The notes: generated from the letters alone by a model not told the origin. A DNA stretch of 64,000 nt from a virus (IMGVR_UViG_3300037601_000088:1-64000), one strand, 5' to 3'; positions 21,815 to 59,439 are shown, numbered from the stretch's first letter. A program made the numbers and translations.

Positions 21815-22210
21815 ATGATATCCTTTGAAAAATATCTAAACGAATCTAGAAACGTTAATATGGATGTGCAAAAATTGAAAAAAGTTTTTGCTAAAAGTGA
21901 GAAAGAAGTGAATAAAATTTTGCAAAAAGACGCGGGTTTTAAGAAAACACGCAGAGTAGGAATGTTCAATAAAATAGAAGAAATTGAACCTGGCCACTTT
22001 TTCTTTTTGTTTGATGGTTTTCTAGGTGGTAGAGTCCGTTTTAATAAAAACGGTACTGTAGACGAAAACCAAGATACAAGTAAAACAGCTAAAGATTTTG
22101 ATACAACATATAGATCAGTAGACGAATGGTATAAAAATCTTATAAAATCACAACTGCCAATGGATATGTGGGATGAAGTTGCTAAGCAAATTAAAGGTAC
22201 GCTTCATTAG
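21815..22210 (+). CDS. Putative internal head protein with capsid-targeting-like leader
   Basis: N-terminus MISFEKYLNE; AATAAATA late-like element at 21789. Confidence 0.55.
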   Translation: MISFEKYLNESRNVNMDVQKLKKVFAKSEKEVNKILQKDAGFKKTRRVGMFNKIEEIEPGHFFFLFDGFLGGRVRFNKNGTVDENQDTSKTAKDFDTTYRSVDEWYKNLIKSQLPMDMWDEVAKQIKGTLH

Positions 22211-23811
22211 AAGCTAAAAGAATTATCTTCTAATTCAAATCCATCTTGAACAATACCAAACGGAAGAAGAGACCTTTCAACGGCTTCTTCCGTTTGTTCT
22301 CTTATAGCTTCGGCAATTTCTTTATCTGTTATTTGATCGATAAATTTTACCCAACAAAGCCAAGCAAATAAAACAAGTGTCATAGCAAGATCATCATTTT
22401 TACCGGTTTCAGCCTCGTAACTTTTACCTTTTAAAGAAAAGGTTTTAAGTTCTGAGTTTGTTTCAGGGCATTGTGTAATTAATTGTTCTTGCTCAATTAA
22501 AACTTTTAGAAAATGACAGCCATTAATTTTTGTTTGGTGGCTTGTTTTAAGTCCTTTATCAGAATCGCCTTCATATGATATTTGCTTACCATTTCTACCT
22601 TTGGTTTTGGTATGAACAAGGTTAGATTCAAGTTCAAAAAGATTATTTGCTACTTCCTCACCATTATCATTAAGTTCGCATAATATATAAGCATCATTAT
22701 AGATTGTTGCAAATTTATGACAAACCATTGCAAAATCAACAGCATTGATCATATTATTTCTATATGTTAATACTTGTTTAAAAGGTTTTTCTGATACATC
22801 TATAATTGATAAAGCTGAATAATCTAAACCCTTCCCCCTTGAAACATCAACGGTCATCACATATATATGATTATTTCTAGAGCCATCTGGAAGAAATGGA
22901 GTTTCATATTGATTAGTATGAGCATCATAGTGTATAAGAGTGCCTGATTCAATTCTTCCTAAAGCAGAACCAGATATAAGGGTAGAGGAAGATCCATGGA
23001 AAGATAGCGCATATTCTTGGTCAAATACTCTCTGATCACCATTACATTCTTCTTCAAGAGTTTTCTTTGCCCATTCATCATCACGACCTGGAACTTTCCA
23101 CCAAGGAACTTCAACGATTTCAATCGAAGAACTCTTTTTACGGGCAGTCTTAACCTGGGTATAAAAATGATTCATACCGTTTGGCGTTGAGGAATAAATC
23201 TTACGAGTTGTTTTACCTGATGCAATAACAGGAAGAACAGCACTTGAAAACTTCTTCCAATCATCAATGAAGGCTACCTCATCGATATAAAGCATATAAA
23301 GAGTCTTACCTCGGATTGAATTACCCTGAGAAGCTGAACAAATGATTTCTGAACCATTATCAAATTTAATTGATTTAGCATTCCATTTAACAACACCAGG
23401 TTTTAGCCAATCTGGCAAATGTTCGAAAGCTAGCTTAATTCTTTCCATAATCTCAATAGCGGTTTCAAGCTTGTTAGCTAAAACGCCAATTCTTTTATTT
23501 TTTAAGAATATTGCTGCATGGAGAAGAATTGCTGTCACAACTGTCGTTTTACCTGACTGTCTTGACTGATTAAGTATTGTAAAAAGACCAGTTGAAGCTT
23601 TTAATATAGCCTCTCTTTGATATTCAAATAATTTAAGAGGTATCAATCCGTGGTCTGGATGAATGATTTTGAAATATGTTTCGGCAAAATATGCAGGATC
23701 TTCTTCACATTTTAAAAGCTCTTCTTGCTGATCAAAGGTATATCCCCGCTCACTATTAGCCCTTGGTAAATGTATATTATTGTTATAAAATTGCGGGCCT
23801 TGATTAAACAT
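22207..23811 (-). CDS. gp17: Terminase large subunit
   Basis: SRQSGKTT Walker A, YIDEVAF Walker B, STPNGMNHFY, DVSRGKGLDYSA, NDDLAM. Confidence 0.97.
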   Translation of the reverse strand: MFNQGPQFYNNNIHLPRANSERGYTFDQQEELLKCEEDPAYFAETYFKIIHPDHGLIPLKLFEYQREAILKASTGLFTILNQSRQSGKTTVVTAILLHAAIFLKNKRIGVLANKLETAIEIMERIKLAFEHLPDWLKPGVVKWNAKSIKFDNGSEIICSASQGNSIRGKTLYMLYIDEVAFIDDWKKFSSAVLPVIASGKTTRKIYSSTPNGMNHFYTQVKTARKKSSSIEIVEVPWWKVPGRDDEWAKKTLEEECNGDQRVFDQEYALSFHGSSSTLISGSALGRIESGTLIHYDAHTNQYETPFLPDGSRNNHIYVMTVDVSRGKGLDYSALSIIDVSEKPFKQVLTYRNNMINAVDFAMVCHKFATIYNDAYILCELNDNGEEVANNLFELESNLVHTKTKGRNGKQISYEGDSDKGLKTSHQTKINGCHFLKVLIEQEQLITQCPETNSELKTFSLKGKSYEAETGKNDDLAMTLVLFAWLCWVKFIDQITDKEIAEAIREQTEEAVERSLLPFGIVQDGFELEDNSFSF

Positions 23812-23819
23812 GTTTAAAA

Positions 23820-24221
23820 TTATGTATTCTTTTTAGCTTTTTTTATTTCTTGAGCTGCTTCTAATGCATCACTAAAAGAACCTACAAAAAGATTATTATT
23901 TGTAACAGCTGAAACTGGAGCATCACCATCTTTTCTTTCGGATCTTTCTTTTGATGCTTCAATTAATGCTTTATTTGCATTTACAACGCTATTCATCATC
24001 GTTGCCAATGTTCTATAATAGTCAGGATCTTGAGATTGTTTGGTAAGTTTAGAAAGCTGAACGAATGAATCCTGAGCAGTTTCAATCACCTCAATCATAT
24101 TTGTTCTTACTTGATCTAAATCATCTATTAATGTTTCATCATTGGTTTTGTCAATAGGAACAAGTTCAACTGGTTTATTGTTGTTTAATATAGGTAAATC
24201 TAAAGGGTTGTTTTTAGCCAT
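23820..24221 (-). CDS. gp16: Terminase small subunit
   Basis: DD...VR.NM...I, VTNNNLFVGS; upstream of gp17. Confidence 0.85.
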   Translation of the reverse strand: MAKNNPLDLPILNNNKPVELVPIDKTNDETLIDDLDQVRTNMIEVIETAQDSFVQLSKLTKQSQDPDYYRTLATMMNSVVNANKALIEASKERSERKDGDAPVSAVTNNNLFVGSFSDALEAAQEIKKAKKNT

Positions 24222-24222
24222 T

Positions 24223-24687
24223 TTATATCTCCAACGGGATTCTTCTTAATTCACAAAAATTTTTGATATATTCTAACAATTTTTTATCTACTCTTTTTTC
24301 ATCTATAATTATTTGTTTAACATATTTATCAAAAGGTTTGATTTCTTTAGCTAAAACTGTTTCTTCATACTCATTTTTGGTATAAGGATCTTTTCCAAAA
24401 TCATCGCCGGATAGTCTTGTGAAGGTATTATTACTATAATTTGCCCAATAGTTATAAGGAACTATTTTATAACGTTGTGACAGTTTTCTTTGATTCATAA
24501 TAATAACACATGGCCCGAATAACCTAGCAGTTTTTTGTCTTCTAGAAAAAGAAATAGCAGGCTTAACCGAACCAAACCCTACCATTGAGTTTTTCATTAA
24601 TATCTGGTAACAATTATATGGAGAAGTACCATGATAAAGATCTGCCATTCTAGCTTCTTCAAGGTATTGTTTAAAATTATCTGGCAT
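24223..24687 (-). CDS. ADP-ribosyltransferase-like protein with capsid-targeting-like leader (paralog A)
   Basis: MPDNFKQYLEE; LYHGT, ISFSR, QRKLSQRYKIVPY, NEYEE. Confidence 0.55.
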   Translation of the reverse strand: MPDNFKQYLEEARMADLYHGTSPYNCYQILMKNSMVGFGSVKPAISFSRRQKTARLFGPCVIIMNQRKLSQRYKIVPYNYWANYSNNTFTRLSGDDFGKDPYTKNEYEETVLAKEIKPFDKYVKQIIIDEKRVDKKLLEYIKNFCELRRIPLEI

Positions 24688-24693
24688 AACTGG

Positions 24694-25938
24694 TTAAAAC
24701 TTAAAATTAAAAAGGTATTTCATGTTATCAGGAACAAATTTCAATATCGCTTGCTCTGTCTTGGGAGAAATAACCATTATAGCTTGGTCTGAATTGAAAT
24801 ATCCTAAGTTTTTACTTATATAAGACCAAAAATCTACCTGAGTGCTTTTACCTTTTTTATCAATTATTTTAATATATAATGGTAAATATTTATTTACTTT
24901 ATCTGGTGAAGCACTATATAAAAATTTACCAATACTAAAAAATTCAGGATAACTCAATAAATCATAATCTACTAAAATCTTTAACATTTTTTGGCTTTTA
25001 AAAATAGCTTCCCATTCTAAAAATTCTACAATATCATCTATTGAATGTTGTTTAATTATTTCTTCAAAATAATTTTCAGGATTAATATCTTTTTCTGCTA
25101 ATGATGACCACAAATAATCGAAATCATTCTTATTAGAAATTATTGCTTTTATCATTTTGTCTGTAATTATTTTACTGGGATATAAATTAAATGAATTTCC
25201 ATATGTTTTTTTAATCAAAGACACTAGTTGAGATTCTTTGAAAACTTTTCCAAATACCCATGGATATTTTGAATGAAATTTATCTGGGTCTACGAACATA
25301 TCTCTTTCATCCATAAATCCTTCATATCCTGATTCAAAATGAATTTGAAATTTTCTATCATCTTTAGTTATAATGATATAAAGAGGACCTTCTCTGTTAT
25401 AACTATTAAAATAATTTACGCTTTTAGCAGCGGCAGTACACCATTCTGTACCACGACCTAGAATACAAGATGCTTTTTCTGTCTTAGGAGAAACAACCAT
25501 TCCTTCTGAGCCTTTATAGATAATGTTGGAATTCTTTAGCGCATTATCCCATTCTTCCTGTTTAGCTTCTTTTCCTGTTCTGGAATTTTCTAGTTTTTCT
25601 TCAACAGTTTCGATAAAATCTCTGTATGTTTTATATGAATTAATGTCTTTTTCACGAGGAGATAAAAGGTTCTTTCTACGTTCAAAAATTTCTAATCGTT
25701 CTGTTACCTTATAAAGATCTTCAAATTTTAAACGTTCACTTATATTTTTATGGGTTATCTGATTAATAATCCATTGTAAATATATTTTTTTCCTAGTGGG
25801 GTCTGAGTCTACTGTGGCTTTCCAAAGTGCTTCATAACCGGCTCGAGAGGTATTCATACCAGCTTTTCTAAAACTATCATAAAAGTATTGTTTAAGAAAA
25901 TTTACACGATTTTCAAAAAGTAAAGTAAAAGTAATCAT
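24694..25938 (-). CDS. Hypothetical protein with G.GT.WCTA domain; possible internal protein
   Basis: MITFTLLFE leader; DPT..K.Y..WI, KDINSY, LGRGTEWCTAA, GPLYII, KFQIHF. Confidence 0.6.
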   Translation of the reverse strand: MITFTLLFENRVNFLKQYFYDSFRKAGMNTSRAGYEALWKATVDSDPTRKKIYLQWIINQITHKNISERLKFEDLYKVTERLEIFERRKNLLSPREKDINSYKTYRDFIETVEEKLENSRTGKEAKQEEWDNALKNSNIIYKGSEGMVVSPKTEKASCILGRGTEWCTAAAKSVNYFNSYNREGPLYIIITKDDRKFQIHFESGYEGFMDERDMFVDPDKFHSKYPWVFGKVFKESQLVSLIKKTYGNSFNLYPSKIITDKMIKAIISNKNDFDYLWSSLAEKDINPENYFEEIIKQHSIDDIVEFLEWEAIFKSQKMLKILVDYDLLSYPEFFSIGKFLYSASPDKVNKYLPLYIKIIDKKGKSTQVDFWSYISKNLGYFNSDQAIMVISPKTEQAILKFVPDNMKYLFNFKF

Positions 25939-27361: not shown

Positions 27362-27421
27362 TATTTATATTTATAAAAATTTTGTTAGGCTATTTACATT
27401 ATGATTTTTGTTGTGTATAAA
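27362..27421. promoter_or_regulatory. Back-to-back late (TATAAATA, - strand) and early (TTTACA-17-TATAAA, + strand) promoters
   Basis: tatttata 27362-27369; TTTACA 27393-27398; TATAAA 27416-27421. Confidence 0.7.
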
Positions 27422-27454
27422 ACAATTATTGAAACCAAACAAAGGAATATATCA

Positions 27455-27820: not shown

Positions 27821-27844
27821 TTTTATATAATTTATTAAAAAATT

Positions 27845-27869: not shown

Positions 27870-28611
27870 ATGCTATAATATCTCTAGCAGGAAGAACCAA
27901 ATCCCTATATTCATTTTCTATTTGATCAATTTCAGAAATTGCATCATTATAGATTTCTCTACCAGACAGAGTTATACCTCCTGGTAATTGAACTCCTTCA
28001 AACTTACTCATAACTGCACCCCATGTTTTCTTAAGGAGCGCTGTTGCATGTTTTTGAAACATTCTTTCAGACCAAATATTGGTATTCGTTTCGGGATCAA
28101 TTCCTTCATAAACTGTCATAATTAAATAATCGCCAACAACCAATTTATCAACATCAACATCTAAATGAAGTCTGTCAATTAATTTGTTATATCGAATAGG
28201 AAAATCCCCAACAAGAAGATCCTGTAATTCCTGTATTTGCAATTTATACATGTAATAAGGAACAAAAGATTCTCTATAAAGAGTCGGCATTTCATTTAAT
28301 AAAAATTGATATGTTGGATTAAAAATACCAGAACTCATTGTTGAAGAAGAAATTCTCCATACATTTGTTACACCTATGATGGTTTCCGGTAAATCTATGT
28401 ATGAGTTTGTGATATCATCGGAAGTTATTTGATGTTTTCTATGGATAAGCTCCGATCCATCAAAATGATAATCAATAAAATAAGCTAAAGCAATTTCAAC
28501 AGCGTCTTCAATTTGGTTGTCATCAACGTTAATCTGAATAACAGGATGGCCAAGCTGCCGCTTAATAAACTCTTTAAATTCTGCCCTGGTTGCTGGCTTA
28601 GATATACTCAT
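27868..28611 (-). CDS. gp13: Neck protein
   Basis: KP.TR.EFKE...RQLG.PVI.INVDD.QIED, YHFDGSE, WG...SKF.GVQLPGG.TL.G. Confidence 0.93.
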   Translation of the reverse strand: MSISKPATRAEFKEFIKRQLGHPVIQINVDDNQIEDAVEIALAYFIDYHFDGSELIHRKHQITSDDITNSYIDLPETIIGVTNVWRISSSTMSSGIFNPTYQFLLNEMPTLYRESFVPYYMYKLQIQELQDLLVGDFPIRYNKLIDRLHLDVDVDKLVVGDYLIMTVYEGIDPETNTNIWSERMFQKHATALLKKTWGAVMSKFEGVQLPGGITLSGREIYNDAISEIDQIENEYRDLVLPARDIIA

Positions 28612-28613
28612 AT

Positions 28614-29189
28614 TTATTTAACACCAAAATCATTAGAAATAATATGAATTTGTTCTTCAAAGTTATTAAAAATTTGATCAAACTTAAATGGATTAGTGTT
28701 TGTTTCGACTCGCTTAAGCTCATTTTTCATTTTACTTAGCAACCCTTGAGTAACGGCTAAAATACTTTCATATTTGTCAGCATTTGTAATAATTTTATCT
28801 ACTAAGGTTTGTAAATCTGGATAAATTTCTTCCGCAGCATTTATCTCATCAATAATATTTTGAGGTACCGACATAGTATTATCGGCATTCCATTTCCGTG
28901 CCCAATCAGCTTTGGCTTTCCAGCCGTGCTTGATATCTTGAGGCACCGGGCCCGTGATGCTGGCGTGCAGTTGTTCAATCCGTGTGATCATATCCAAAAG
29001 CACTGTTTCGCCAGTTAGATAGATGGGTGTATCGGCCGGGCTTACCCAGCCGTTTTCATCCCGTTCCATTCCCGGCTGAGCCTCGTCTGGGATCTCTTCC
29101 CATGTCACAGAGGGGTGAAATTTGCCGGTAGGGTCAAAATCAATGACCTCCACTAATGTATCATTCTGAACGCGTCCGTACTTCGTCAT
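28614..29189 (-). CDS. Tail fibre assembly/chaperone-like protein
   Basis: YGRV....VEVI...P.G.FHP...W; C-terminal W..KA..AR...L...I...A..YE shared with 30224 gene; follows a fibre gene. Confidence 0.6.
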   Translation of the reverse strand: MTKYGRVQNDTLVEVIDFDPTGKFHPSVTWEEIPDEAQPGMERDENGWVSPADTPIYLTGETVLLDMITRIEQLHASITGPVPQDIKHGWKAKADWARKWNADNTMSVPQNIIDEINAAEEIYPDLQTLVDKIITNADKYESILAVTQGLLSKMKNELKRVETNTNPFKFDQIFNNFEEQIHIISNDFGVK

Positions 29190-29198
29190 GGCTGCCTC

Positions 29199-30224
29199 CT
29201 AAGCACTCAAATATTCTGTGACGATGACGATGCCGGGCGTACCAGCCAAATTGGGGGTTACGCGAACGCCGGAGCCAGCGTAGTTGGGACCACTCGATCC
29301 ACTGCCATATCCGTTTCCTATGCTCCCCGCACTCACTCTGATGGGCATTGGCGCTCCCTTGCCGAAGTAGCTGTCGCCACCAGCATTGCCTCCTTGCTGT
29401 GCCGTTGTTTCGTACATAGCTCTACCCCCTCTGCCTCCGGGGATAGATACCCCGACACCTGTAAAGGAGGCCACACCACCCGCTGCTTCAGTAGCACTCG
29501 TGCGATACCCACCTTGTCCCCCTGTGGCAGATATGTGCGCTCCAAATGAAGAAGTGCCCCCCGTCGCGCCGTTGGCATTGGTCGATCCACCAGCCGCAGC
29601 CGCGCCCACTGTGACAGCCTCAGTTGCCGCTAAATCTGCTTCTGCAAAGATTTTCCGACCGTAGCCACCCCCAGCACCACCTCCCCCTATATAGTTCCCA
29701 GAACCAGAGGGGCTACCGCCACCGCCGCCTTGTACTTCAACGGTGGCAAACAGAAGATTTGTGGGCTTCGTCCAAGTTCCAGATGAAGTAAAAACCTGTT
29801 GTTGAACAACGACGCCACCACTTGCCTGCGCTGCAATAGCCTGCGCAACGCGTTCTTCAGACCAGCCTTTGATAGTTGTCCCTGCACCAGCTTCAGCATC
29901 CTCTTGAGTGACGAGGTCAAGTGTATCTTGTTTGCTTGACTGCAATGTATTAAGGCTTGTTTGTAAATTAGTTACATCAGCAATCACATGATTATGAGAA
30001 GTATTTGCTTTACCAGATTGAAGTGCTGTTACGTCTGTTTGAAGTTGTTGAACATCTGGTTCTATTTGAGAAACGGTATTGGCTGCAGCAATAGCCCCAT
30101 TGATTGCACTCAAGGAATTTTCTAAAGCTTGAGCAAGAGTATCACCCTCAACTGAAGAATCATTGTCTATGTTTGATGCTTTTGCTGTTCCGTAAACCCT
30201 ATTTCCTACAAAATCTCCTGGCAT
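29199..30224 (-). CDS. Tail fibre/receptor-binding protein with glycine-rich C-terminal domain
   Basis: KASNIDNDS N-anchor, SHNH repeat, FTSSGTWTKP...GGGGG glycine-rich domain, GIVIVTEY end. Confidence 0.75.
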   Translation of the reverse strand: MPGDFVGNRVYGTAKASNIDNDSSVEGDTLAQALENSLSAINGAIAAANTVSQIEPDVQQLQTDVTALQSGKANTSHNHVIADVTNLQTSLNTLQSSKQDTLDLVTQEDAEAGAGTTIKGWSEERVAQAIAAQASGGVVVQQQVFTSSGTWTKPTNLLFATVEVQGGGGGSPSGSGNYIGGGGAGGGYGRKIFAEADLAATEAVTVGAAAAGGSTNANGATGGTSSFGAHISATGGQGGYRTSATEAAGGVASFTGVGVSIPGGRGGRAMYETTAQQGGNAGGDSYFGKGAPMPIRVSAGSIGNGYGSGSSGPNYAGSGVRVTPNLAGTPGIVIVTEYLSA

Positions 30225-30916
30225 TATAAGTTCCCTAAATCAATACCTATTTTTTGAGCTTCTGTAAAAGCTTCTTGTTGTGCTTGTTGTAAAATATAAT
30301 CATAGCGCGAATCATCTGGTTCAGCTAAAATAAGATCAGAATACTTATTTCTTAATCCGGCTGTAATCGCAACAACGGCTTCATATAATGTTGCTTTCGC
30401 AACAATTCTCTCTGCTAAAGCTAATTTAGATGGATATTTAGCACCAGAAACCGAATATTCTGTATCGATTAAAGGAGTTGGTAGAGTGTTATCAGATATA
30501 TAAGCCCTTGCTTCTGCTGCTTTGACCGCCCATGAAATTTTTTCAGTTTGAGGAACATGCCCGGCAATTCCATTAAGAACATCTTCAATCCAATTATTCA
30601 TTGTAATAATTGTTTGTTTTGCTGTAATAGGCTGTGGCTGCGGTGGTAATTTTGTTAGATTACCTGGTATAGGGCCAAGATCCTCTATAATTATTTCTTC
30701 GCCAAATTCATTATAAAAAGTTTTACCTCTATTGTCATCAACATATTTCCATTTAGTATTATTCCAAATAACAGCTTTATTCGGTAATTTAACAAGTGGA
30801 GCTACATTTGTTGCGTATGCAGGAATTAACCAATTACCAATATCGATTGGATCGGGGTCTGCTTGCCCTGAGCCTAGGTACTCACCAGTAACAGGACTAT
30901 AGTGATAAATGTTCAT
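30224..30916 (-). CDS. Tail fibre assembly protein (Tfa-like)
   Basis: IYHYSP.TGEYLG...AD.DP......LIPAYAT..AP, W.YV.D.RG, LGP.P. Confidence 0.8.
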   Translation of the reverse strand: MNIYHYSPVTGEYLGSGQADPDPIDIGNWLIPAYATNVAPLVKLPNKAVIWNNTKWKYVDDNRGKTFYNEFGEEIIIEDLGPIPGNLTKLPPQPQPITAKQTIITMNNWIEDVLNGIAGHVPQTEKISWAVKAAEARAYISDNTLPTPLIDTEYSVSGAKYPSKLALAERIVAKATLYEAVVAITAGLRNKYSDLILAEPDDSRYDYILQQAQQEAFTEAQKIGIDLGNL

Positions 30917-30928
30917 GGTTCATGTCTC

Positions 30929-31675
30929 CTAGAACTTGATGCAGGCGAGAAGGGTGATGTTACGAGGGCGAGCTTCTGTGCCGCCACTTGAACCCGTTGA
31001 CAAAGCCCCAAAGTTCGAACCACCAACGCCGGAAGCAAGACTTGTGGCACCGCCACCTCCAGCTGTTGACCAAACCGTCAAAGCTACAGAGTGAGTGTGA
31101 GCTTTGTTGGCGTCAGCCTGTGTGGAACCGAACACGCGTCCGCTATCTATGCCCCGGCCATCATCCCAACCGCGAATGAACTCACCGCGTAGATCAGGGA
31201 CGTTGAAAGTGGTTGATCCGTCTCCTGCACCGAAGGTTGTTCCAATGGCTGCGAAAAGATCGGCGTATGTCGTTCGAGAAACCGCCGCGCCGTTTGCCTT
31301 AAGAAAGCCTGTTGGTGCTGTGTTAGCCGCATACCACATAACAAATCCGGTAGGAACTCCTTCTGGTGCTGGCGGTGGATTACTGACACTATATTTTGAG
31401 TCTAATGTAGTCTGGAGGTTTGTTACCTGAGCAATCGTATGAGTGTGAGATGAAGAAGCTTTACCATCCAAAGTTGTTTGAAGATTTGTAATATCTTCAA
31501 TATCATGGCTATGGATTGTCGCAGCTTTACCAGATACACTTGTTTGTAATGCGACAAGTGTATCATTAAGGTTTCCCAGTGTTACTGCAATAGTTGTTCC
31601 ATTTGCGGTACTATCATTATCAATATTTGAAGCTTTAAGCTGCCCACCTAATTGAAGACCTAAATACGATGACAT
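30929..31675 (-). CDS. Tail fibre protein with phage tail collar domain
   Basis: P.GFLKANGAAVSRTTYADLFAAIGTTFGAGDGSTTFNVPDLRGEFIRGWDDGRG, E.RPRNI.LLACIK. Confidence 0.9.
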   Translation of the reverse strand: MSSYLGLQLGGQLKASNIDNDSTANGTTIAVTLGNLNDTLVALQTSVSGKAATIHSHDIEDITNLQTTLDGKASSSHTHTIAQVTNLQTTLDSKYSVSNPPPAPEGVPTGFVMWYAANTAPTGFLKANGAAVSRTTYADLFAAIGTTFGAGDGSTTFNVPDLRGEFIRGWDDGRGIDSGRVFGSTQADANKAHTHSVALTVWSTAGGGGATSLASGVGGSNFGALSTGSSGGTEARPRNITLLACIKF

Positions 31676-32001
31676 TAATTAGTCTGCTCCAGATAATTAA
31701 CAATTACATCAACACTTGTTGCTGTTGTGCTAGTAACATTAAGGCTATCGCCTTCAAGCAAATTAATCTTACCATCAAATGAAATTGTCGATCCAGCAGG
31801 AATTGGGACAGAACTTAAAATATGTGTATAATTATTGCTGGAATCTCTATGTTCCATATCAATACTAACAGTATTTGCAGTTATATTTGATAAAGTAACT
31901 CCAAACACAATATGGACGGTATTGGAAGCAACATCAGAACCTATTTTGGTTCTTGCCGTTCCTACTGCTCTTTCTGTTGATCTTTCGAATGAATTTGCCA
32001 T
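31675..32001 (-). CDS. Small virion structural protein
   Basis: MANSF..., IPAGSTI....KINL..GD.L.V, DVIV.YLE pattern common near T4-like fibre genes. Confidence 0.6.
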   Translation of the reverse strand: MANSFERSTERAVGTARTKIGSDVASNTVHIVFGVTLSNITANTVSIDMEHRDSSNNYTHILSSVPIPAGSTISFDGKINLLEGDSLNVTSTTATSVDVIVNYLEQTN

Positions 32002-32007
32002 TTGTTA

Positions 32008-32403
32008 TTATTTATCTTTCGTTTTAGGCACTGTGACAATAAACACAGCAAAAAAAGCAGGCCATATTGTCCATCTGTTTTCTTTTAATCTTGCTGAGAG
32101 AGCTCTTCTGAATTCACCAGCAGAAACGAGTTTATCTGCGCCGGTTTCTAAAAACCAGTCATGAACACAAGATGCCAGAACAAATGCTTGATTACTCCTG
32201 GCCCAATTAAACAAAGGAATAAAAAATGGGAATACCCAATATGCCCATTTTGGAATTGTTACCTCAAATACAAAATCTTTTGGAATGGTTACTGAAGGGC
32301 CATTAAGAAATCCCATATGCCATACTAAATCATCATCAAGTTTGTATGTTGATGATATATCTGGTACTTCGCTATATGATTCAAAACTTGTATATTTTGA
32401 CAT
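32008..32403 (-). CDS. DUF1353-like protein
   Basis: VTIPKDF.....IP.W, AS.VHDW. Confidence 0.65.
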   Translation of the reverse strand: MSKYTSFESYSEVPDISSTYKLDDDLVWHMGFLNGPSVTIPKDFVFEVTIPKWAYWVFPFFIPLFNWARSNQAFVLASCVHDWFLETGADKLVSAGEFRRALSARLKENRWTIWPAFFAVFIVTVPKTKDK

Positions 32404-32451
32404 TCTTAATTTCCTTCCAACTTTTTATGAATGTGACAGCACAAAATTCAC

Positions 32452-33231
32452 TCATGACGGTGGAACTATGCTTGTGCTTACGTTTCCGACTGGGACCGTG
32501 CTTATCCAGTTGTTACCGTTTCCAGAGATATCGAGGCCCAAGTTACCAGAGTTTGCAAAGTCAAGGTGATACCCCATCGTTCCATACGTACCGTTGTAGC
32601 GCTCCGGCACCCACACACCTCCTCTTGTCCTGCCAAATTGGTTAGCATCCAATGTCTGGCCATCAACGAAAATCATTTCTGCCAGATACGAAAGCGCAGG
32701 ATCGGTGATGGTTCCGCCATTAGAGTTCCAACGGTTCCCAATCATGACGTAAGGAACATTACTATTGATTTCTGTATTTTCGCTTTGATTTAAAAGCCGG
32801 TCAGTTGTAGTTGTGGCAACTTGTACTCCGTCTTTATAAAACCGCAGTCTTTCTGAAGCTGTAGCGTTATTAGTATCAGCGGCGACCACCCAATGATACC
32901 AAATATCGTTTACTATCGCAGGCGTATAAATTTGACTAACGCTTACGCTATTATGCTTCCCGAAATAAGCGAACCTGTTGGCACCCCCGTTGCCCATCAT
33001 AATACGGTCGCGCCACGCGTTGCTAAACTCATAACTGAGTATAGTATTAGGCACCCCGGTGAATGCAGTTCGCCTAGCCCAAAAACTAAATGTCCAGTTT
33101 CTTCTATCCCCAGCAGGGATAGTAGCTGTCCTGTACAGATAATATGACACACTGTTAAACAGTACGGACTGCTTGATTTTGTAGATGCTTTTGCCGCCAC
33201 CAAACCCAGTAAGTTGATTAACTCTAAGCAT
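32452..33231 (-). CDS. LamG/concanavalin A-like lectin domain virion protein
   Basis: Start MLRVNQLTGFGG; WTFSFW, WYHWVVA.DT, RLRFYKDG, YLAE..FVDGQ.L, YGT.GYHLDF...LG.D.SGNGNNW. Confidence 0.8.
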   Translation of the reverse strand: MLRVNQLTGFGGGKSIYKIKQSVLFNSVSYYLYRTATIPAGDRRNWTFSFWARRTAFTGVPNTILSYEFSNAWRDRIMMGNGGANRFAYFGKHNSVSVSQIYTPAIVNDIWYHWVVAADTNNATASERLRFYKDGVQVATTTTDRLLNQSENTEINSNVPYVMIGNRWNSNGGTITDPALSYLAEMIFVDGQTLDANQFGRTRGGVWVPERYNGTYGTMGYHLDFANSGNLGLDISGNGNNWISTVPVGNVSTSIVPPS

Positions 33232-33796
33232 TAGTTTGGTCCGGGTCTGGCCATCTTGGATCATTGCGGAAGTCTTCAGCAATGACTGGATCATTGTCCT
33301 TCATATCAAAGCTCACAGCGTAGACCGCTTGAACGTAAGCCGCGCCTTTCGCCCACATCTCAATAAGCTGTGCATCGTTCAAGGTGTGCATTACGTTGTT
33401 ACCATCACGGAACTGCGTCGATGCACTAGGTGCTTGCTGAAGTTGCCGGAGCACTGCGCCGTCTTTCAAACCAGCAATATTGTCTTTATCCTTGGCGCGA
33501 CCCTGGACATAGATCGGAGCCGTAATGCCAGTCACGTTGATTGTTACGCCGTTTTCGATTAGTTGCTCGGCATAGGCCGTAACATCGTCCGTCGTAGGAG
33601 GGGGAGGCGGAGAAACATAAACATTTTCAACAGCCTCATCGGATATAATGGTCCAACCGGCATCGGCTTCAACTTCAGTCGTAGCGGAAGTACCTACAGG
33701 ATACCATTCGACATTTTTGTGTGGGATGTGTGGGGGGCGTTCAGGCAGCCTACGGGTACTTTGAAACTCACCGTTAATGAAGAGTGCGTACATCAT
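33224..33796 (-). CDS. DUF4376-like tail fibre accessory protein
   Basis: FRDGNNV.H.L...Q..E......AYV..VY, DPRWP; start 33796 or 33805. Confidence 0.6.
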   Translation of the reverse strand: MMYALFINGEFQSTRRLPERPPHIPHKNVEWYPVGTSATTEVEADAGWTIISDEAVENVYVSPPPPPTTDDVTAYAEQLIENGVTINVTGITAPIYVQGRAKDKDNIAGLKDGAVLRQLQQAPSASTQFRDGNNVMHTLNDAQLIEMWAKGAAYVQAVYAVSFDMKDNDPVIAEDFRNDPRWPDPDQTNA

Positions 33797-33797
33797 A

Positions 33798-34649
33798 TCA
33801 GTCATCCGTTGCTGCGTTGGTGGTGTAGCGGATTTCGACGCCAAGCATTAATGCATCAGTAGCCAAAGTATCAGCTACACCGATTGGATATCTGTACAAA
33901 AGCAACATGAGCAGCTCGTCGCTGTCACCGGATGCGAGCGTCGGTGTAGCCCAAGGTGACATATGTATATCGTTAGCAGCAATCAGTGTGTCTGTGGAAG
34001 TGGCGTCTGCCTCTCTCGCTGTAACTGGGTCATCGTCAGCAAAACTTCTTCCACCCAACCACCATTCGACACCGCCCGATCCACTGGTTGCAGTCCAAAT
34101 AACTCGATACTCAAAAGGTGCCCCGTCCCATGACTTCGGCATTTTAACGGTCGCCCAACTGTACTCAGTAACAGTTGGATCAAACGCCAGTACAGGCGTC
34201 TCGAATGCACTTGCCACATTAGGCACTGACACCTCTGGGACAGGATTTGCTTCACCAAGTGCCCAAGCCCCAGCAGGTAGCCAGATCGTGTGCTTGCCAG
34301 TAACATTTGATAGTTCTAATTTATTTCCTAAATTTGTCTCAAGATCAGTAATTTTTGACTGTGCTAAAGTTGGAATTCTATCAGCATTAAAAGTGCCACT
34401 GGTAATTTTAGATGCAGCCAGACTGGGAATTCGGGCTGTAGCCAATGTACCTGCATTAATATCGTCAGCATTATGTGTATGAGATGTATTAGCTTTACCA
34501 CTAATATCACTGGTATGACCATCGGTTGTTACCTTAAGCGCATCCAATACAGTCGTTAAATCAAGACCAGTAAAATCACTAGCATTTGTGATATTGCTTG
34601 TAGAAAGATCTAATGGAAGAACTGGATTATTGCCAATATATTTTGTCAT
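33798..34649 (-). CDS. Tail fibre-like protein
   Basis: YIGN N-anchor, SHTH, I.AGTL..ARIP repeats, GC-rich C-terminal KHTIWLPA...MPKSWD domain. Confidence 0.7.
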   Translation of the reverse strand: MTKYIGNNPVLPLDLSTSNITNASDFTGLDLTTVLDALKVTTDGHTSDISGKANTSHTHNADDINAGTLATARIPSLAASKITSGTFNADRIPTLAQSKITDLETNLGNKLELSNVTGKHTIWLPAGAWALGEANPVPEVSVPNVASAFETPVLAFDPTVTEYSWATVKMPKSWDGAPFEYRVIWTATSGSGGVEWWLGGRSFADDDPVTAREADATSTDTLIAANDIHMSPWATPTLASGDSDELLMLLLYRYPIGVADTLATDALMLGVEIRYTTNAATDD

Positions 34650-35113
34650 TAGAAGATCACCGCATAAACGATTGCTTGTTCAGTTGCTTCTTGAAGGGTT
34701 GCAAATCCTAGGCTATTCTTCATTCCAGTAATATCATTTTTTGTAACAGTATTTCCTGACATTGTTAAAAATTCTGTGGTTGTGTTTGACGATGCTGCGG
34801 CTGCAGTATAACTTATTGAATTAGCAACAACATTTTCTGCATTTAATGTGTCGGAAAATGTAGCATTAACTGAAAATGTTGTATTACTTGCAAATACTAT
34901 TGGCTGAGTATTACCAAATTCACCGCCATAAATCACATCAACATATAGGTCATTAATTGTCATTGTTCCATCAATGACAGTATTTCCTGATACCGTATTA
35001 GCATCTACGGTAACTATATTATTTTTTAGGGCGTCAAGAAGCTGGTTTGTTCTTGTGATTAATGTAGTAAAAGTATCTGTTGATATATCTACATTTGCGT
35101 AATTAAGACTCAT
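34649..35113 (-). CDS. Virion structural protein (fibre anchor-like)
   Basis: ANV....DTF...ITRTN, A.VYAV end. Confidence 0.55.
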   Translation of the reverse strand: MSLNYANVDISTDTFTTLITRTNQLLDALKNNIVTVDANTVSGNTVIDGTMTINDLYVDVIYGGEFGNTQPIVFASNTTFSVNATFSDTLNAENVVANSISYTAAAASSNTTTEFLTMSGNTVTKNDITGMKNSLGFATLQEATEQAIVYAVIF

Positions 35114-35291
35114 TAACCAGTTTTTCCAGTTTTTCTATTCTTTTTAAGGCTTTATTATATTTATCATTTAATTCTTTGATTTTTAGATCTAAAAATCTAT
35201 CTCTTTTTTTACGAGCTTTATAAAGCTTAAGAGAATTTTTATCGTTATTTAAAAGAGTCCCCTCTTTTTCTTTAATTAAACCTGTAGACAT
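35103..35291 (-). CDS. Small coiled-coil protein
   Basis: LLN.D...L..YK.RK motif typical downstream of DUF4815 genes. Confidence 0.55.
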   Translation of the reverse strand: MSTGLIKEKEGTLLNNDKNSLKLYKARKKRDRFLDLKIKELNDKYNKALKRIEKLEKLVNES

Positions 35292-38200
35292 ATTGCTCTA
35301 GCATCTGTTAATCTTGGAACAATGAGTTTACTTTCAGAAAGAAGGACTACTTTAACCATAAATGATTTAAATCCGACAAAAATCCCGTCAGAAGTATCTT
35401 GATATTCTATGATATTAAAATTATTTTCATTTAAGAAAGCGCCATTCGTGACAGGGGCAGTTGAAGGAACACCATATACAAATTCTCTGAAGTCTTGAGG
35501 ATTCGCAGTAGAACTGAAAAGTGTTTCGCCTGAAGTATAGTTTAGTTTTGTCCATACTTTATCATCAATAGATTCACCATCTTCACCATTTAGAAATTTA
35601 ACATAAACCTCTATTTCTGTTGTAGGCGGTTTATATCCTCCGATATAAATTTGAATATCTTCAGCATCCTGACCGTCTTTAAGAGTTATTTGCGGAGAAA
35701 TATATTTGGTTAATGCATTACCATAGCGAGTATGTTCGTTTGTATTATCGTTATTAATAATATTTTCAATATGATATGAAGATTTACGAACCATATCAAT
35801 CATAGGTGAAACGTAATCATTTCCTGTATTTAAATCAATTTTATATGTTGATGATTTATTTCCAGACATTTCTGTCTCTTCATTTGACTTTGAGACAGCA
35901 ATTCTCATTTTATCGAAGAATTCATTTTCAGTTTCTTCTGTAACAGTTTCAAATGTTCCATCGATATTATATGAAGTATCAGTTCCCTTAAATCCAAAAG
36001 TTAATGAGGTAAATGAAGGAGAAAGTGTTGCAAACCTAGGAACAACCATAGAATATTGCTCATTATCAACGCTATCAATTGTCGCTGTTGCTACAAGAGT
36101 ATTTGCATTGATTACACTCTGGTTATTCATGAAAGGTCTATGAATTTGAATATCATCATTTGCGCTAAATCCGCCTGAAGACAAATCAAGTATAAGTTTA
36201 TCATTTGCGTCATCAACTAATTGAATATAACCAACTGGATCGGTATTTCCTGTTTGAGCTACCGCAGTTGAATTTGCAGTATAAACAATATCACCTGGGA
36301 GAGGGGAAATAGAGGAATTTGCTCTATTAATCCCGTCAACAGTGAAATAATCATCATCTTCGTTTTCGAAGTAGGCAGAACCAGTTCCAGTCGTAAAGAC
36401 TGCGCGATAGATATTAACTTTAGGATCTTCAGTCTGAATTGGTGTATATGTCATTTCATTTGCAGAAATAAAGGTTACACCCATGTAAGGATTTGAGAAA
36501 ACTTGTTGGCCTGTATTAATATCATTTTGCCCAATAGCACTCATCCAAATTGTATAGTTTGGAGAGTTACCGTCTGGCTTTACCTGATAACAATAATATT
36601 TGTTTGAAGCTAAAGGAACAATATTTTCAAAAGTAAAGATTGTTTCTACACTTGCATCTGTGGAAGTATTAATATCAGAGGCTTTTAAATGAGCCTTTGC
36701 TATAATTTTAGAACTATCTGGGAAATTATAGCTCATTTCCATAAGATAAACATTCATTCCAAGAGTTTCATCTTTATCTCTAAAATAAAGACCAATTTGA
36801 GGAATAAATAGAGTAGGAGATCCAGGCGAAACGGTTAAGAATGAATGAGCTAAGGGGTCACGACCGCCTTCATCCCCCGAATCTTCGTTTTGAATATTGA
36901 AATTATTTTGTGGCGGCGGAAACCATGTTGTTGTAGATCTAGAGTTAATACTAGTTGTTGTATTTGTCTCAATATTAGTTGCGGTTGAAATTGATGGCTC
37001 ACGTGTTGTGATATCAATATTCTGTGAAGTAACAGCTAAATTAGATGCGGTATAAATGGCCTTGGCTGACGATGTGGCCGCTTCTGGAGAAGTTACAATG
37101 TTATCCACGTTGGCGATAATAAATTCTCTGTCACCCACTCTGAATTCATTCTGAGGGATTCTAAATACACCATAAACATTACCGCTGGCATCAGATACAA
37201 TATCATCCCCGTAATCTCCTGTACGATTAATTATTTGATTTTCTTGGCCTTGAAGAAAATCATTTTGCCCTGACAATTCTCCAGGTGCTGAATGTTCAGA
37301 AACATTTACCTTATCGAAGAAAGTATAATATCTTGAATTTGGTTTTAAGCCGGTAACAGCAAAAGCAATAACGCGGCTACGAATATAAGGGTTTGAACTT
37401 ACGTCTTTTACGAAAGAACCTAGATTATATTCTCTGGAAGTTACATCAACCTGAAGGCCTTGATTTGTTCTTTGCTGTGTTGACGTAGTTCTAGTCGTAG
37501 TGGTTGTAGTTATACCCGCTCCAAAGTTATTAGTATTTCTTCCAATAACATCTGTCTGAGAAGCGGTTGTTCTCCAATCACCGAATGTCATAGCAAATGG
37601 TGTTTGTGCGAACTCTTCCCATGGGGTTGCCATATCAAGCTCAATATTAACGGCTGGGATTAGTTCTTCATCCCTGTGATGATCGAATTCAGGATAGAGA
37701 TTTAATTGACCATGCCATTTCCAAAAACTTTCAGTACAATTTCTTATTTTTGTTGCATAGGGCTGGGATGCCATAACAGCCGTTGTATAAGGCCGTGTAA
37801 TAATTGATCCAGTAACTTGAACACCAGAAGATAAACTTGTGCTATACTTATAATCTATTGTGTGTTTATCGAAAAATGGTCTTGCAACCGCATTAGTTTC
37901 ATCGATTGCTATTTTATATTCTACATCATTAACTCTACCAAGATTATGAGAAATAAAAGGATTAGCAAAAATACCACTTTTAAAGCGATCTAATCCGTTT
38001 TCATCCGGTATAGATAAATCTTTTGCGGATTGTTCTAATAAGTTAAGAGATGAATTATATTCAAGGGATGTAATTCTTCTATCAAGAACACCAATATCTC
38101 TCATGGTATATCCACGAGTTTTAAAGAGTTCTATTTTAGTTTTTATATCATTTCTTTTGTATGCTTCGCCTTCTCTTGTAGAAAGGGAAGGATAACCAGG

Positions 38201-52915: not shown

Positions 52916-52916
52916 A

Positions 52917-54192: not shown

Positions 54193-54234
54193 TAATAAGC
54201 TCTTCAAATATTATTTCTTTTTTATTTTTAAAAT

Positions 54235-54297
54235 TTAAACCAATAGCCAATTTTGAATATATGATTCTGTTAAAAATTCTTTAAAAGTAGTATACAT
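54235..54297 (-). pseudogene. 20-codon mini-ORF consisting of a capsid-targeting-like leader
   Basis: MYTTFKEFLTESYIQNWLLV*, TAATG-coupled; resembles MSFKHFLTESNVQNW of the 54946 gene. Confidence 0.5.
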
Positions 54298-55923: not shown

Positions 55924-56495
55924 TTATTAACAAATCCTTTAGTTTTCATGTCATATAATAAAGGATGATTTAATATTCTAGAAATATTTTTAGTTTTATT
56001 TATTTGTTTTTGATTAATTGATAAAAATCTTTCATAATCATCAATAATAACTTTAGTTAAATACTTACTAAAATTTCTTAAAATTCGAATAACTCTTTTT
56101 TTATTATCAAACATCATTACAGGAGTTTTTCTTCCTATAACTCTTTCCTCTGACTGGTTTATAAACTCTTCATAATCGCCAGAAATCCTACTTTTGTCAT
56201 CAAACCAGTTAAAAGGGACAATCTTGTAATCATTTGTTAATTTTTGTTGATCAGCTTCAAATACAACTCTATAATATCCGAATGTAGTAAATTCATCATG
56301 ACCCATATAGTCTTTGGCAAAAGTTTTTGTATATTTGTATGATCTGGTGAATGATACACCCTGAGGATAACCTTGCCATGAATCATCTGCAATATGAAGA
56401 AAGTTTTTTTCTAGAATAGTTATAGCGTTTTCTATAGTTGTAGAATGATAGAAAGGGGCAGACCTTGATTCAGTTAAGAATTGTTTAAAACTCAT
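55920..56495 (-). CDS. ADP-ribosyltransferase-like protein with capsid-targeting-like leader (paralog E)
   Basis: MSFKQFLTE; FYHST, VSFTRS, DQQKL..DYKIVPF, QSEE; C-terminus nearly identical to paralog B. Confidence 0.55.
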   Translation of the reverse strand: MSFKQFLTESRSAPFYHSTTIENAITILEKNFLHIADDSWQGYPQGVSFTRSYKYTKTFAKDYMGHDEFTTFGYYRVVFEADQQKLTNDYKIVPFNWFDDKSRISGDYEEFINQSEERVIGRKTPVMMFDNKKRVIRILRNFSKYLTKVIIDDYERFLSINQKQINKTKNISRILNHPLLYDMKTKGFVNK

Positions 56496-57850: not shown

Positions 57851-58335
57851 TCAAGTCTTTTCTTTTTATTTTTCTTGAATAATAAAGTACTATGATCTGT
57901 TTTTTTGGCTATATTACCAGATCCAATGGTATTTGTTGGGCCATCAGATTCTAAAAGTTGCTCATATATTTTGTAGAATTTGTCTTCATCAATAACAGGA
58001 TAAAACTCTTCTTCTTTTAAAAGTTTTCCTTTGTATTTTTCATGTTCTTTTAAAAGATAAATAGCCGCAGCAAACGAAGCTATCGTTGTAGCACCCGCTG
58101 AAAATCTGCTTAAAAGTTTTTTCATATTAAGAATCATTAAATCAAAAAGAGAAAAATCATTCTTTTCTCTTGAAGAAAGAGTTTTTCTGGGTCTTAATAT
58201 TTTGCCTTTTTCATCAATTATTCCTGCTTTATAAGCATCCCACGATTTAAAAGGAGAAGTGAGTCTTCTTAAGAATGAATAAAGAAGGTATACATTTGCA
58301 CCAGATTTTACAATTGATTCGTTTAATTTTTCCAT
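57820..58335 (-). CDS. Conserved T4-like virion-associated protein
   Basis: FLRRL..PF..W.AYK.GIID.KG..L, A.A.YLLKE, PTN..G.G. Confidence 0.65.
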   Translation of the reverse strand: MEKLNESIVKSGANVYLLYSFLRRLTSPFKSWDAYKAGIIDEKGKILRPRKTLSSREKNDFSLFDLMILNMKKLLSRFSAGATTIASFAAAIYLLKEHEKYKGKLLKEEEFYPVIDEDKFYKIYEQLLESDGPTNTIGSGNIAKKTDHSTLLFKKNKKKRLEWQRHLSKRQ

Positions 58336-58344
58336 TAAATATAT

Positions 58345-59439
58345 TTATTCAAACACTTTAAAAACATCAGAAAGTTCTTCTGTTGCTGTTCTAATATTAT
58401 ATTTTTCAGGATTTTTATTATATTCTTTTACAAATTCGTTATTAAAGCGTTTATAAACGCGACTGAATAAATCAGCTATGTGTTTTGTTTCTTTAACTTT
58501 AATCCCAAATAATTTATCTAGAAATGACATTTTAAAACCGTAAAAGGCTACTATACAATACTTACCCTTTAATATAGAAGTGGTTTTGTTGAATCTATTT
58601 AACATAAGCTGTTTTGTTTCTCTTGATACGTAATGCTCTTTTGCATCTAATAATTCATATAAAATAAGTGATTTATTAACATCAACAATAATTTCGCATC
58701 TTCCATCTGGATAAAGAAAATCTTTCTCTGGATTTCTTCTAAATCCGTCATGTTTTAATATATTAACATCTACGTTAAAGCTTTCTTTAATTATATTCTC
58801 GGATTGTTTTCGAATAAGTTCAATAGTTTCTGGAAGTAAATCGTCATATTTTTGTTTAATAATATAAATTAAATACTTTTCGTCAACTTTCTTTTTTCTA
58901 TATAAAGCATCTAGAACTTCATTATTTACATCAAGCCTATTTGTAATATGTTTATATTTTTTTTCTTTAATTACATCTAATATTTTATATTTGCCTGGTC
59001 CAAGTAATAATTCACTATGACCTATTTTTGTTAAATCAAGGGCTTGATTTTTTTTAATCTGTAATTTAAGAATTATTCCAATAAAACCAAGTATTCTTTC
59101 GTTTTCTTTACGACTTTGACCATATAAATTTGCAACAAAAGGATTTAAATTATAAACCATTGGTGATTTTGCATATGTTCTGGCATCATCGAGACCGAAA
59201 GCAGCGCTGTCTACTTCTTTTACTTCGTAATAACCGTCACGAATCGATCTCATAAAATTTAAATATTGTTTTGGTGACTTAAAATTTAAACCCCTATATA
59301 CAGTAGTAGAGGATGAACCATAGTCATCAATGTAATCATTAAATTTGTTAGCAATCCTAGATTTATACATATCAAAATCATCACTTCTTACATAATCTTG
59401 AAGATCAAAATTTTCTGCTATAAATTTTTTAAAATTCAT
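58345..59439 (-). CDS. ART-like protein with capsid-targeting-like leader
   Basis: True start 59439 (TAATG) gives MNFKKFIAE; TVYRGL, VDSA, HSELLL.PGKY. Confidence 0.5.
   Translation of the reverse strand: MNFKKFIAENFDLQDYVRSDDFDMYKSRIANKFNDYIDDYGSSSTTVYRGLNFKSPKQYLNFMRSIRDGYYEVKEVDSAAFGLDDARTYAKSPMVYNLNPFVANLYGQSRKENERILGFIGIILKLQIKKNQALDLTKIGHSELLLGPGKYKILDVIKEKKYKHITNRLDVNNEVLDALYRKKKVDEKYLIYIIKQKYDDLLPETIELIRKQSENIIKESFNVDVNILKHDGFRRNPEKDFLYPDGRCEIIVDVNKSLILYELLDAKEHYVSRETKQLMLNRFNKTTSILKGKYCIVAFYGFKMSFLDKLFGIKVKETKHIADLFSRVYKRFNNEFVKEYNKNPEKYNIRTATEELSDVFKVFE

Follow-up and report, generated by a model that had tools for sequence, protein, structure and literature searches.

The first 64,000 bp of IMG/VR record IMGVR_UViG_3300037601_000088 (the window), from an uncultured phage sampled in a metagenome, contain genes for unrelated proteins that begin with variants of a single short peptide. 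We examined these leaders together with three more that lie elsewhere in the linear, 147,252-bp virus record, whose completeness is estimated at 85%. Our analysis indicates that they are probably capsid-targeting propeptides of the kind known from bacteriophage T4, marking proteins of at least five unrelated families for packaging in the phage head and for injection. In T4, the gp21 prohead protease cuts the capsid-targeting sequence (CTS) from the internal proteins IPI, IPII and IPIII (Mullaney & Black 1996; reviews PMC9026906 and PMC3012670).

A common leader opens genes of the late regions

Ten N-terminal leader strings had been listed in an earlier note on this DNA, and all ten are present. 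The one at 21815 is on the plus strand; the other nine are on the minus strand, so that the coordinate of each start is the high end of its gene (Table 1). In a six-frame scan of the window, the pattern F-[KEQRT]-x-[YFL]-[LIF]-x-E was matched nine times, each time at most five residues from a start codon. A stricter motif, F-K-x-[YF]-[LI]-x-E, was then counted in the first 20 residues of called genes. It opens 11 of the 237 genes called in the whole record, three of these outside the window, and besides them the stub at 54297 described below; when the proteins were shuffled 2000 times, 0.22 genes had it on average and 3 at most. Internal matches number 2 in 45,705 residues. The three further leader genes (at record positions 124609, 125048 and 125938, within 124.6-126.4 kb) adjoin gp4, gp2 and a gp5-like hub gene, and all carriers of the motif fall within two late structural regions of the record. 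The earlier note had reasoned that its proposal would suffer if the motif were as frequent in early genes; the strict motif occurs in none of the genes of the early and replication regions. A relaxed form also matches the N-termini at 17173, 91900 and 138319, which lie outside the late regions and lack the aromatic pair; these three were not counted.

The leaders are conserved at four positions: an aromatic residue at 4, another at 7, Leu or Ile at 8 and Glu at 10. All full leaders end in L/I-x-E, and the next residue is small or polar. The conserved residues are spelled with different synonymous codons (TAT/TAC, CTT/CTA/TTA, TTT/TTC, ACA/ACT and GAA/GAG), and therefore the constraint is on the peptide and not on the DNA.

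The tight joining of these genes to late genes, also claimed in the earlier note, was borne out: we found TAATG and ATGA junctions, 8-nt overlaps and gaps of 0-6 nt. Boxes of the sequence TATAAATA lie upstream of gp23, gp67, gp19, gp13/14 and gp6. Judging by the overlapping junctions with structural genes and by the TATAAATA boxes that head the operons, the leader genes would be expressed late. Once the leader is removed, the predicted mature cargos measure 14-42 kDa. Eleven of them are basic, with an isoelectric point (pI) of 9.1-9.8, Acb1 being the exception at 7.85; the median for the proteins of the genome is 5.7, and 22% of them exceed 9.

The leader matches the T4 signal and is accompanied by T4-type head genes

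The leaders of T4 IPII and IPIII (NC_000866) read MKTYQEFIAE and are followed by Ala, and that of IPI is a related 19-residue form ending in I-T-E. In amber-suppressor experiments of the Black laboratory, residues 4 and 7 proved to be the main determinants of targeting, and residues 8 and 10 those of processing (PMC9026906). The four positions conserved in the phage described here are these same targeting and processing positions, so that the likeness to the T4 leader drawn in the earlier note extends to the functional residues.

Searches with PHROGs and Pfam identified a head module of T4 type, in T4 gene order, on the minus strand. The genes of the prohead core follow one another as gp23-gp22-gp21-gp68-(285-aa ORF)-gp67-gp20. 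Both proteins on which a T4-type leader would depend are encoded: a gp22-type scaffolding core protein, the presumed docking partner, and a gp21-type protease, the presumed leader peptidase, whose His and Ser motifs align with those of T4 gp21. The specificity of this protease is likely to have been kept, because its substrates retain [LI]-x-E at homologous positions (see the entries for gp23, gp21 and gp67 in Table 1).

The 285-amino acid (aa) open reading frame (ORF) between the gp68 and gp67 homologs (window 13495-14352, minus strand) is extra to this arrangement and has no family match. Its N-terminus, with I-I-E ending at residue 11, is leader-like in a looser way, and it could encode a further core or internal protein.

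If the leader works as it does in T4, the tagged proteins would be late products, their genes co-translated with those of the head, neck and baseplate. The hydrophobic or aromatic residues 4 and 7 would dock each protein onto the gp22-based prohead scaffolding core, and the gp21-family protease would cut after the Glu of [LI]-x-E and release a small basic mature protein, which would stay in the head with the DNA and exit with it at the next infection. The payload would consist mostly of diversified proteins of about 150 residues with an ADP-ribosyltransferase (ART) fold, nearest to the nucleic-acid-acting enzymes Tpt1/KptA and DarT. It would also include the cyclic-nucleotide phosphodiesterase Acb1, two proteins with R/S/ExE motifs, a small protein without a family and possibly gp0.7-like kinases.

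The tags of T4 and of this phage have in common an N-terminal peptide of about ten residues with aromatic residues at 4 and 7, [IL]-x-E at 8-10 and a small residue next; in both phages they sit on unrelated small basic proteins, and homologs of gp21, gp22 and gp23 are encoded here too. They differ in number, with 12 tagged genes here and three in T4, and in the cargos, which are mostly enzyme-fold proteins here and small inhibitors in T4. The putatively tagged genes are moreover dispersed in neck and baseplate operons in this phage. The internal proteins of T-even phages are basic, and their loci are polymorphic (PMC9026906); they comprise diverse anti-restriction proteins that have only the CTS in common (PMC3012670).

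The main cargo family has an ADP-ribosyltransferase fold

Seven of the leader-bearing proteins (starting at 24687, 49285, 49774, 52125, 56495, 125048 and 125938) are paralogs of one family, with 27-43% identity; the five in the window are related by BLASTP at E values from 1e-11 to 1e-29. This family stays below the cut-off of every Pfam, PHROGs and NCBIfam model, and a tblastn search with the 163-aa member F against 50,697 GenBank phage records gave no match. A profile built from the seven paralogs, by contrast, retrieved from 1.84 billion proteins 3,762 cluster representatives at E ≤0.001, of which 1,292 had E ≤1e-10. The leader starts 118 of the 132 single-domain proteins among the best 150 profile matches, a share that is inflated because the profile contained the leader; one of these proteins has MKTYQEF. 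Among cultured phages, Caulobacter phage Cr30 has a fragment-like relative of 106 aa, gp060, which covers the first half of the family (hhalign probability 97%) and is seen by profile comparison only.

An AlphaFold2 (AF2) model of member F had a mean predicted local distance difference test score (pLDDT) of 86 and a predicted template modelling score of 0.81. Its best match in Foldseek was yeast Tpt1 (E 3e-4), followed mainly by Tpt1/KptA, DarT and PARP entries. With VIA-align, the model superposed on the C-terminal lobe of yeast Tpt1 (7yw4) with a Z score of 12.3 and a root-mean-square deviation of 2.5 over 112 residues, on DarT (7yk3 and 7omw) with Z scores of 9.4-9.6, and on toxin ARTs with Z scores of 5-6. 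His18, Arg47, Glu104 and Glu105 are invariant in the family. By profile, the L-Y-H-x-T strand of the family was aligned with the strand of Tpt1 and DarT that lines the nicotinamide adenine dinucleotide (NAD) site, His18 falling on their H-x-T, albeit at weak E values of 0.04-0.8. The best matches in a viral structure library were uncharacterised proteins of jumbo phages, often several per phage.

Thus the model, with the Foldseek and VIA-align comparisons, supports the H-type ART-like cargo proposed in the earlier note: as modelled, the proteins with Y-H-[GAS]-T adopt an ART fold and belong to the nucleic-acid-acting branch, any enzymatic activity of theirs being putative. Their likeness to Tpt1/KptA and DarT, the best structural matches, may extend to the NAD-site strand L-Y-H-x-T. 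Membership of Tpt1/KptA itself was not found: the score against NF002013 was 17.3 bits, where the cut-off is 231, and there was no match to PF01885. In contrast to Tpt1, these proteins are without the N-terminal lobe, the model covering only the C-terminal one (chain residues 107-230 of 7yw4), and they carry the leader peptide. No DarG-like partner of the family was seen.

Relatives of 534-2290 residues carry 3-8 repeats of the domain. In the 2290-aa polyprotein, all seven listed repeats have [LI]-x-E directly before G-R-D-A-P-L-Y-H, without the aromatic pair, and in proteins with 5-8 ART units [LI]-x-E likewise precedes most units, again with no aromatic pair. This pattern fits one targeting signal per chain, with a protease then separating the units; alternatively, the repeated [LI]-x-E could be a structural feature of the first strand of the domain. 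In a T4-like contig, the 2290-aa gene immediately follows a DUF7207 gene, the position that cargo I (364 aa) has in the window. Its product (L064:639-7511) has an N-terminal part of about 880 residues besides the 7-8 ART-fold repeats, and the next gene encodes a protein with a peptidoglycan-binding domain. Arrays of 8-11 leader genes within 5-15 kb were observed in contigs of related phages, L016 (IMGVR_UViG_3300007289_000010, 1-14896) and L018 (IMGVR_UViG_3300038701_002504); they consist mostly of the ART-fold family, with a kinase and other cargos in between.

A further observation concerns NAD metabolism. NAD-salvage genes follow the late region at record positions 64380-67240, just past the window, and are also present in a related contig (L010:66-3137), where they score as an NMN (nicotinamide mononucleotide) transporter, an AAA_28 NadR-like protein and NAMPT. 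They are worth recording because the ART-fold proteins, of which this phage may carry many, would consume NAD.

It is possible, though we put it forward only tentatively, that the proteins with Y-H-[GAS]-T are relatives of DarT and Tpt1 that ADP-ribosylate nucleic acids and are delivered by the capsid, forming a very large class so far wholly uncharacterised. Such proteins, diversified into arsenals of paralogs and into polyproteins that the head protease would cut into single units, might modify host DNA, RNA or defence components at injection, before phage gene expression.

The leader is portable: Acb1, kinases and other cargos

One of the leader genes outside the window encodes Acb1, with two H-x-T motifs (H-C-T and H-I-T), and adjoins gp2 and gp4. 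The Pfam domain starts directly after the leader Glu, at residue 11, and most Acb1 homologs of GenBank phages, including Acinetobacter and Rhizobium phages, align only from residue 11-12. A second fusion of leader and Acb1 was found in a 109.5-kb IMG/VR phage (43.8 bits). The anti-CBASS (cyclic-oligonucleotide-based anti-phage signalling system) 2H phosphodiesterase of T4, gp57B, is the T4 Acb1. It has a similar aromatic pair at its start but no [LI]-x-E, so that of these two Acb1 proteins only the one described here has the full leader.

The earlier note had counted two kinases as possible cargo; by profile they resemble the protein kinase gp0.7 of phage T7. The window copies keep only the M-[LI]-x-E end of a leader, whereas homologs in two related contigs carry the full leader, behind GTG and TTG starts with good ribosome sites. 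Because the homologs have it complete, the window N-termini look like truncated leaders that have lost their targeting half.

The gene of the 131-aa cargo A is the lone plus-strand gene between gp18 and gp17, and its product has no Pfam, PHROGs or NCBIfam match. Cargo G has a single homolog among 5.8 billion proteins, with 36% identity, and the motifs Y-R, S-W-S and E-K-E-I-L-x-x-P-G are conserved in both. One homolog of cargo I, from a different contig, is full-length and leader-bearing (32% identity, E 2e-59); another, which is distant, has no leader. In the window copy, S-A-A and H-S-E stand in place of the S-x-S and E-x-E of the homologs, so that the first Glu is gone and S-x-S is incomplete. 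An alternative start for cargo I lies 8 codons upstream, at 59463; with the start at 59439, the gene forms a TAATG junction with its upstream neighbour and begins as its homolog does.

Cargos G and I align with each other over their R/S/ExE motifs (hhalign E 3.7e-5, probability 71%) and may share a domain. Arg, S-x-S and [QE]-x-E follow one another in this order in cargo G and in the homologs of cargo I. The earlier note had proposed an R-S-E ART-like cargo type, which for these two proteins is a suggestion at the level of motifs. Alignment with T4 Alt and ModB by hhalign was not significant (ModB was in register, at E 0.026 and a probability of 2%), sequence and profile searches of the PDB returned only noise, and there was no Pfam match. 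An AF2 model of cargo G, from a three-sequence alignment, had a pLDDT of 44 and was not used for any fold claim. The motifs suggest an ART-like identity, and we do not file these two proteins as ARTs.

Two of the listed leaders are of a different standing. The one at 25938 is degenerate, with a hydrophobic residue in place of the aromatic at the second key position and the Glu one residue early; its family has a conserved N-terminal [FL]-L-E-[ND]-R motif of its own, and a few members have a full leader before that motif. The one at 54297 heads a stub of 20 codons. A related contig has, in the same position, a second paralog of the 55923 type, whose reading frame runs on to the contig end over at least 172 aa, and the stub is therefore a deletion relic of a lost 55923 paralog. 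Read-through of the stub into the downstream kinase by the reported amber suppressor was considered and rejected: the frames agree, but both stops are TAA.

Leaders also head proteins of other kinds, of 146, 103 and 499 aa, in the 32 IMG/VR loci reached via the ART-fold family; a search for related loci with the gp48-like protein found no relatives. One related contig has no cargo I gene between DUF7207 and the next conserved gene, and from such comparisons leader genes appear to come and go between conserved structural genes. The picture of ten ORFs with unrelated cargos given in the earlier note thus stands as to a portable leader on unrelated cargos, and needs correction in that five of the window genes are one family, one is the stub and one is degenerate. 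As independent cases the ten are too many: once the three genes beyond the window are added, five clear families of cargo can be counted.

Table 1. Leader-bearing genes, head and tail genes and cleavage sites (window coordinates unless marked "record")
Feature	Position	Strand	Details
gp23-type major capsid protein	10337..11656	-	I-V-E62 aligns with T4 cleavage site L-T-E65
gp22-type scaffolding core protein, presumed leader docking partner	11703..12563	-	phrog_237, E 2.6e-50
gp21-type prohead protease, presumed leader peptidase	12597..13253	-	PF03420 Peptidase_S77, 134.8 bits (cut-off 27); phrog_207
gp21 N-terminal site			T4 L-I-E9; this phage L-S-E9
gp67 site			T4 L-I-E; this phage L-I-E
gp20 portal, gp19 tube, gp18 sheath, gp17 terminase			continue the head module; PHROGs/Pfam
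Cargo A, 131 aa	21815..22210	+	full leader; family unknown; mature part 121 aa, pI 9.4
ART-fold member B, 154 aa	24223..24687	-	full leader
414-aa protein	24694..25938	-	degenerate leader ending L-F-E, one residue shorter
Neck, baseplate wedge, hub and tube-cap genes	25.9-58 kb
ART-fold member D, 167 aa	48782..49285	-	full leader
ART-fold member E, 162 aa	49286..49774	-	full leader; TAATG junction with gp5-like hub gene
ART-fold member F, 163 aa	51634..52125	-	modelled member; 8-nt overlap with gp48-like gene
gp0.7-like protein kinase L, 225 aa	53515..54192	-	phrog_15752, E 3.5e-10; N-terminus M-I-N-E only
Stub, 20 codons	54235..54297	-	full leader and 10 residues like the 55923 start; TAA, then a second in-frame TAA
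gp0.7-like protein kinase K, 222 aa	54297..54965	-	phrog_15752, E 2.7e-13; N-terminus M-L-L-E only
Cargo G, 325 aa	54946..55923	-	full leader; C-terminal Y-R, S-W-S, E-K-E-I-L motifs, ART-like unconfirmed
ART-fold member H, 191 aa	55920..56495	-	full leader; ortholog in related contig L010
Cargo I, 364 aa	58345..59439	-	full leader; N-terminal domain with Y-R-G motif
gp26-, gp3-, gp4-, gp2- and gp5-like genes	record 121.8-127.4 kb		outside the window
Acb1	record 124609-125055		outside the window; full leader; PF23474, 70.4 bits (cut-off 27), domain residues 11-145

Other explanations of the leader

A propeptide can serve purposes other than targeting. The leader might be an inhibitory peptide, removed by the protease as in zymogen control, with the enzymes acting in the producing cell or in assembly, entering the prohead transiently or not at all, and not being injected. 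A cut after Glu10 in the ART-fold family leaves about seven residues before the NAD-site His, and T4 Alt carries N- and C-terminal propeptides of undecided role (PMC5694885), both of which would suit such control. However, gp21-type proteases work inside the prohead, so that cleavage implies entry; the match to T4 extends to the targeting residues and is not confined to cleavage, and the basic mature pI fits packaged proteins. We consider this explanation improbable, and give somewhat less credence still to one in which the leader loads proteins into the lumen of the tail or baseplate and not into the head. The interleaving of the leader genes with gp5-, gp48-, gp53-, gp15- and gp13/14-like genes speaks for tail loading, as does the peptidoglycan-binding protein gene adjoining the 2290-aa multi-ART gene. 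But, compared position by position, the peptide matches a T4 head-core signal, its last residues form the site of the head protease, and proximity to baseplate genes is not conserved, since another relative has the ART-fold family among rnh, seg and glutaredoxin genes.

Two further explanations would deny the peptide a targeting role. That the leaders reflect shared ancestry only, as inherited N-termini of duplicated genes plus chance look-alikes, gains something from the paralogy of 7 of the 12 leader genes, from the relatedness of the 54297 stub to the 55923 gene and from the possibly distant relationship of the G and I domains already described. It is nevertheless quite unlikely: cargo A and Acb1 have the leader too, as do kinases and three further families in relatives, and beyond the Glu no similarity is detectable; five independent families exceed the maximum reached by shuffling; and leaderless homologs of Acb1 and of the cargo I family exist. 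Least likely of all, and very improbable in our view, is a feature of the mRNA, such as a translation initiation or coupling element, or a junction for cassette recombination, in place of a peptide signal. The starts are AT-rich and overlap upstream stop codons, and the polymorphism of the T-even internal-protein loci (PMC9026906) would agree with exchange of cassettes. Against this, codon usage varies at the conserved residues, the sequence upstream of the ATG is not conserved between genes, and thousands of distant proteins have kept the same peptide.

The reading of the leaders as T4-type capsid-targeting propeptides, which we prefer, has several points against it as well. Seven of the leaders come from a single paralog family, in which the Glu and the next Arg are contiguous with the conserved A-P-L-Y-H strand; part of the ART-family leader could be a structural element of the domain. 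The leader's share in the 3,762-member family carries the bias of the search profile noted above. The genes lie among baseplate genes here, unlike the internal-protein genes of T4. Finally, T4 gene 61.1, in the early primase region, has a CTS-like N-terminus and is not a known internal protein, and therefore the motif alone is no proof of packaging. For this phage and its relatives, packaging, cleavage and injection are proposed from the sequence, as are late expression, docking and every enzymatic activity.

Gene 61.1 itself (NC_000866 18966-19130, minus strand; locus L062:667-831) is a hypothetical ORF of 54 codons and lies just upstream of the primase gene; its CTS-like start has aromatic residues at 4 and 7 and I-K-E at 8-10. 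We know of no report of packaged T4 gp61.1. Cr30 gp060 has a similar start and lies a few genes from the Cr30 primase.

Relation to known packaged proteins

One established case is T4 Alt, an ADP-ribosyltransferase that is packaged in the head and injected with the DNA. It is thus a ready-made ART and, as proposed for the proteins described here, has an N-terminal propeptide, cut by gp21 at I-T-E6 (PMC5694885). The differences lie in size and lineage: Alt has 682 aa, belongs to the R-S-E clade and is present in a single copy, whereas members of the main family here have about 150 aa, carry His in the first motif and are closest in fold to Tpt1 and DarT. The ejection proteins of phiKZ-like giant phages (phiKZ, 201phi2-1 and SPN3US) offer another parallel, in that many head-internal proteins are processed at x-x-E by a homologous protease and the cargo includes paralog families; their propeptides, however, usually exceed 100 residues, the motif is A/S/G-x-E, and no common ten-residue tag has been described (PMC5694885).

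A full-text search of the literature returned no paper on this ART-fold family, on packaged Acb1 or on CTS-tagged sets in distant T4-like phages. The mechanism is that of T4, and the CTS has already been proposed in the T4 literature as a general loading device (PMC3012670, PMC9026906), possibly an evolutionary device by which T4-like phages incorporate various proteins (PMC9026906). What is new is the scale, where the genes lie, that enzymes are among the proposed cargo, and an ART-fold family that is very large and uncharacterised. CTS-like N-termini were also found in cultured distant relatives, namely Rhizobium phage RHph_I1_18 (gene start near 41,970), Stenotrophomonas phage DLP_6 (near 52,316), Sinorhizobium phage phiM12 (near 10,836) and Caulobacter phage Cr30 (gp060). 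A scan of five cultured genomes with a degenerate DNA pattern gave about as many matches as the reversed control, so that only checked N-terminal matches are reported, and these carry no statistical weight.

The phage and other features of its genome

By its capsid protein, the phage is closest among cultured phages to Stenotrophomonas DLP_6 and Rhizobium RHph_I1_18 (about 60% identity), then to Caulobacter Cr30 and then to the Sinorhizobium phiM12 group; 163 of 439 residues (about 37%) are identical to the T4 protein. At the DNA level, its similarity to GenBank phages is confined to one short tail-fibre stretch. Over its 200 nt, this stretch shares 70-74% identity with the tail-fibre genes of phages that are otherwise unrelated (cyanophage KBS-S-2A, Sinorhizobium phiM12 and Ralstonia phages). 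The tail-fibre genes (window 28000-36000) have a GC content of 0.40-0.42, compared with about 0.30 elsewhere, which suggests an exchanged fibre module.

Two features of the early regions may be added. ARAGORN reported, with an asterisk flag, a gene resembling that of transfer-messenger RNA at window 8902-9332 on the plus strand, with the tag peptide ANDNVADGEIVRLAA. Five paralogs of about 123 aa, nearly identical in their first 22 residues, are dispersed in these regions, at window 2938-3309 (plus strand) and at record positions 84514-84888, 135805-136182, 141742-142110 and 142614-142994.

Implications

To our knowledge, the cargo that T4-like phages carry besides DNA is known in detail only for T4, where it consists of three small internal proteins and Alt. 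If the leaders described here work as in T4, one loading device serves a dozen proteins in this phage, most of them enzyme-like. The same device would then mark a protein family with thousands of clusters, to which the libraries searched assign no function, curated family or solved structure, and the leader would be a cheap sequence marker for injected effectors in metagenomes. If Acb1 is packaged, anti-CBASS activity would be present from the first second of infection.

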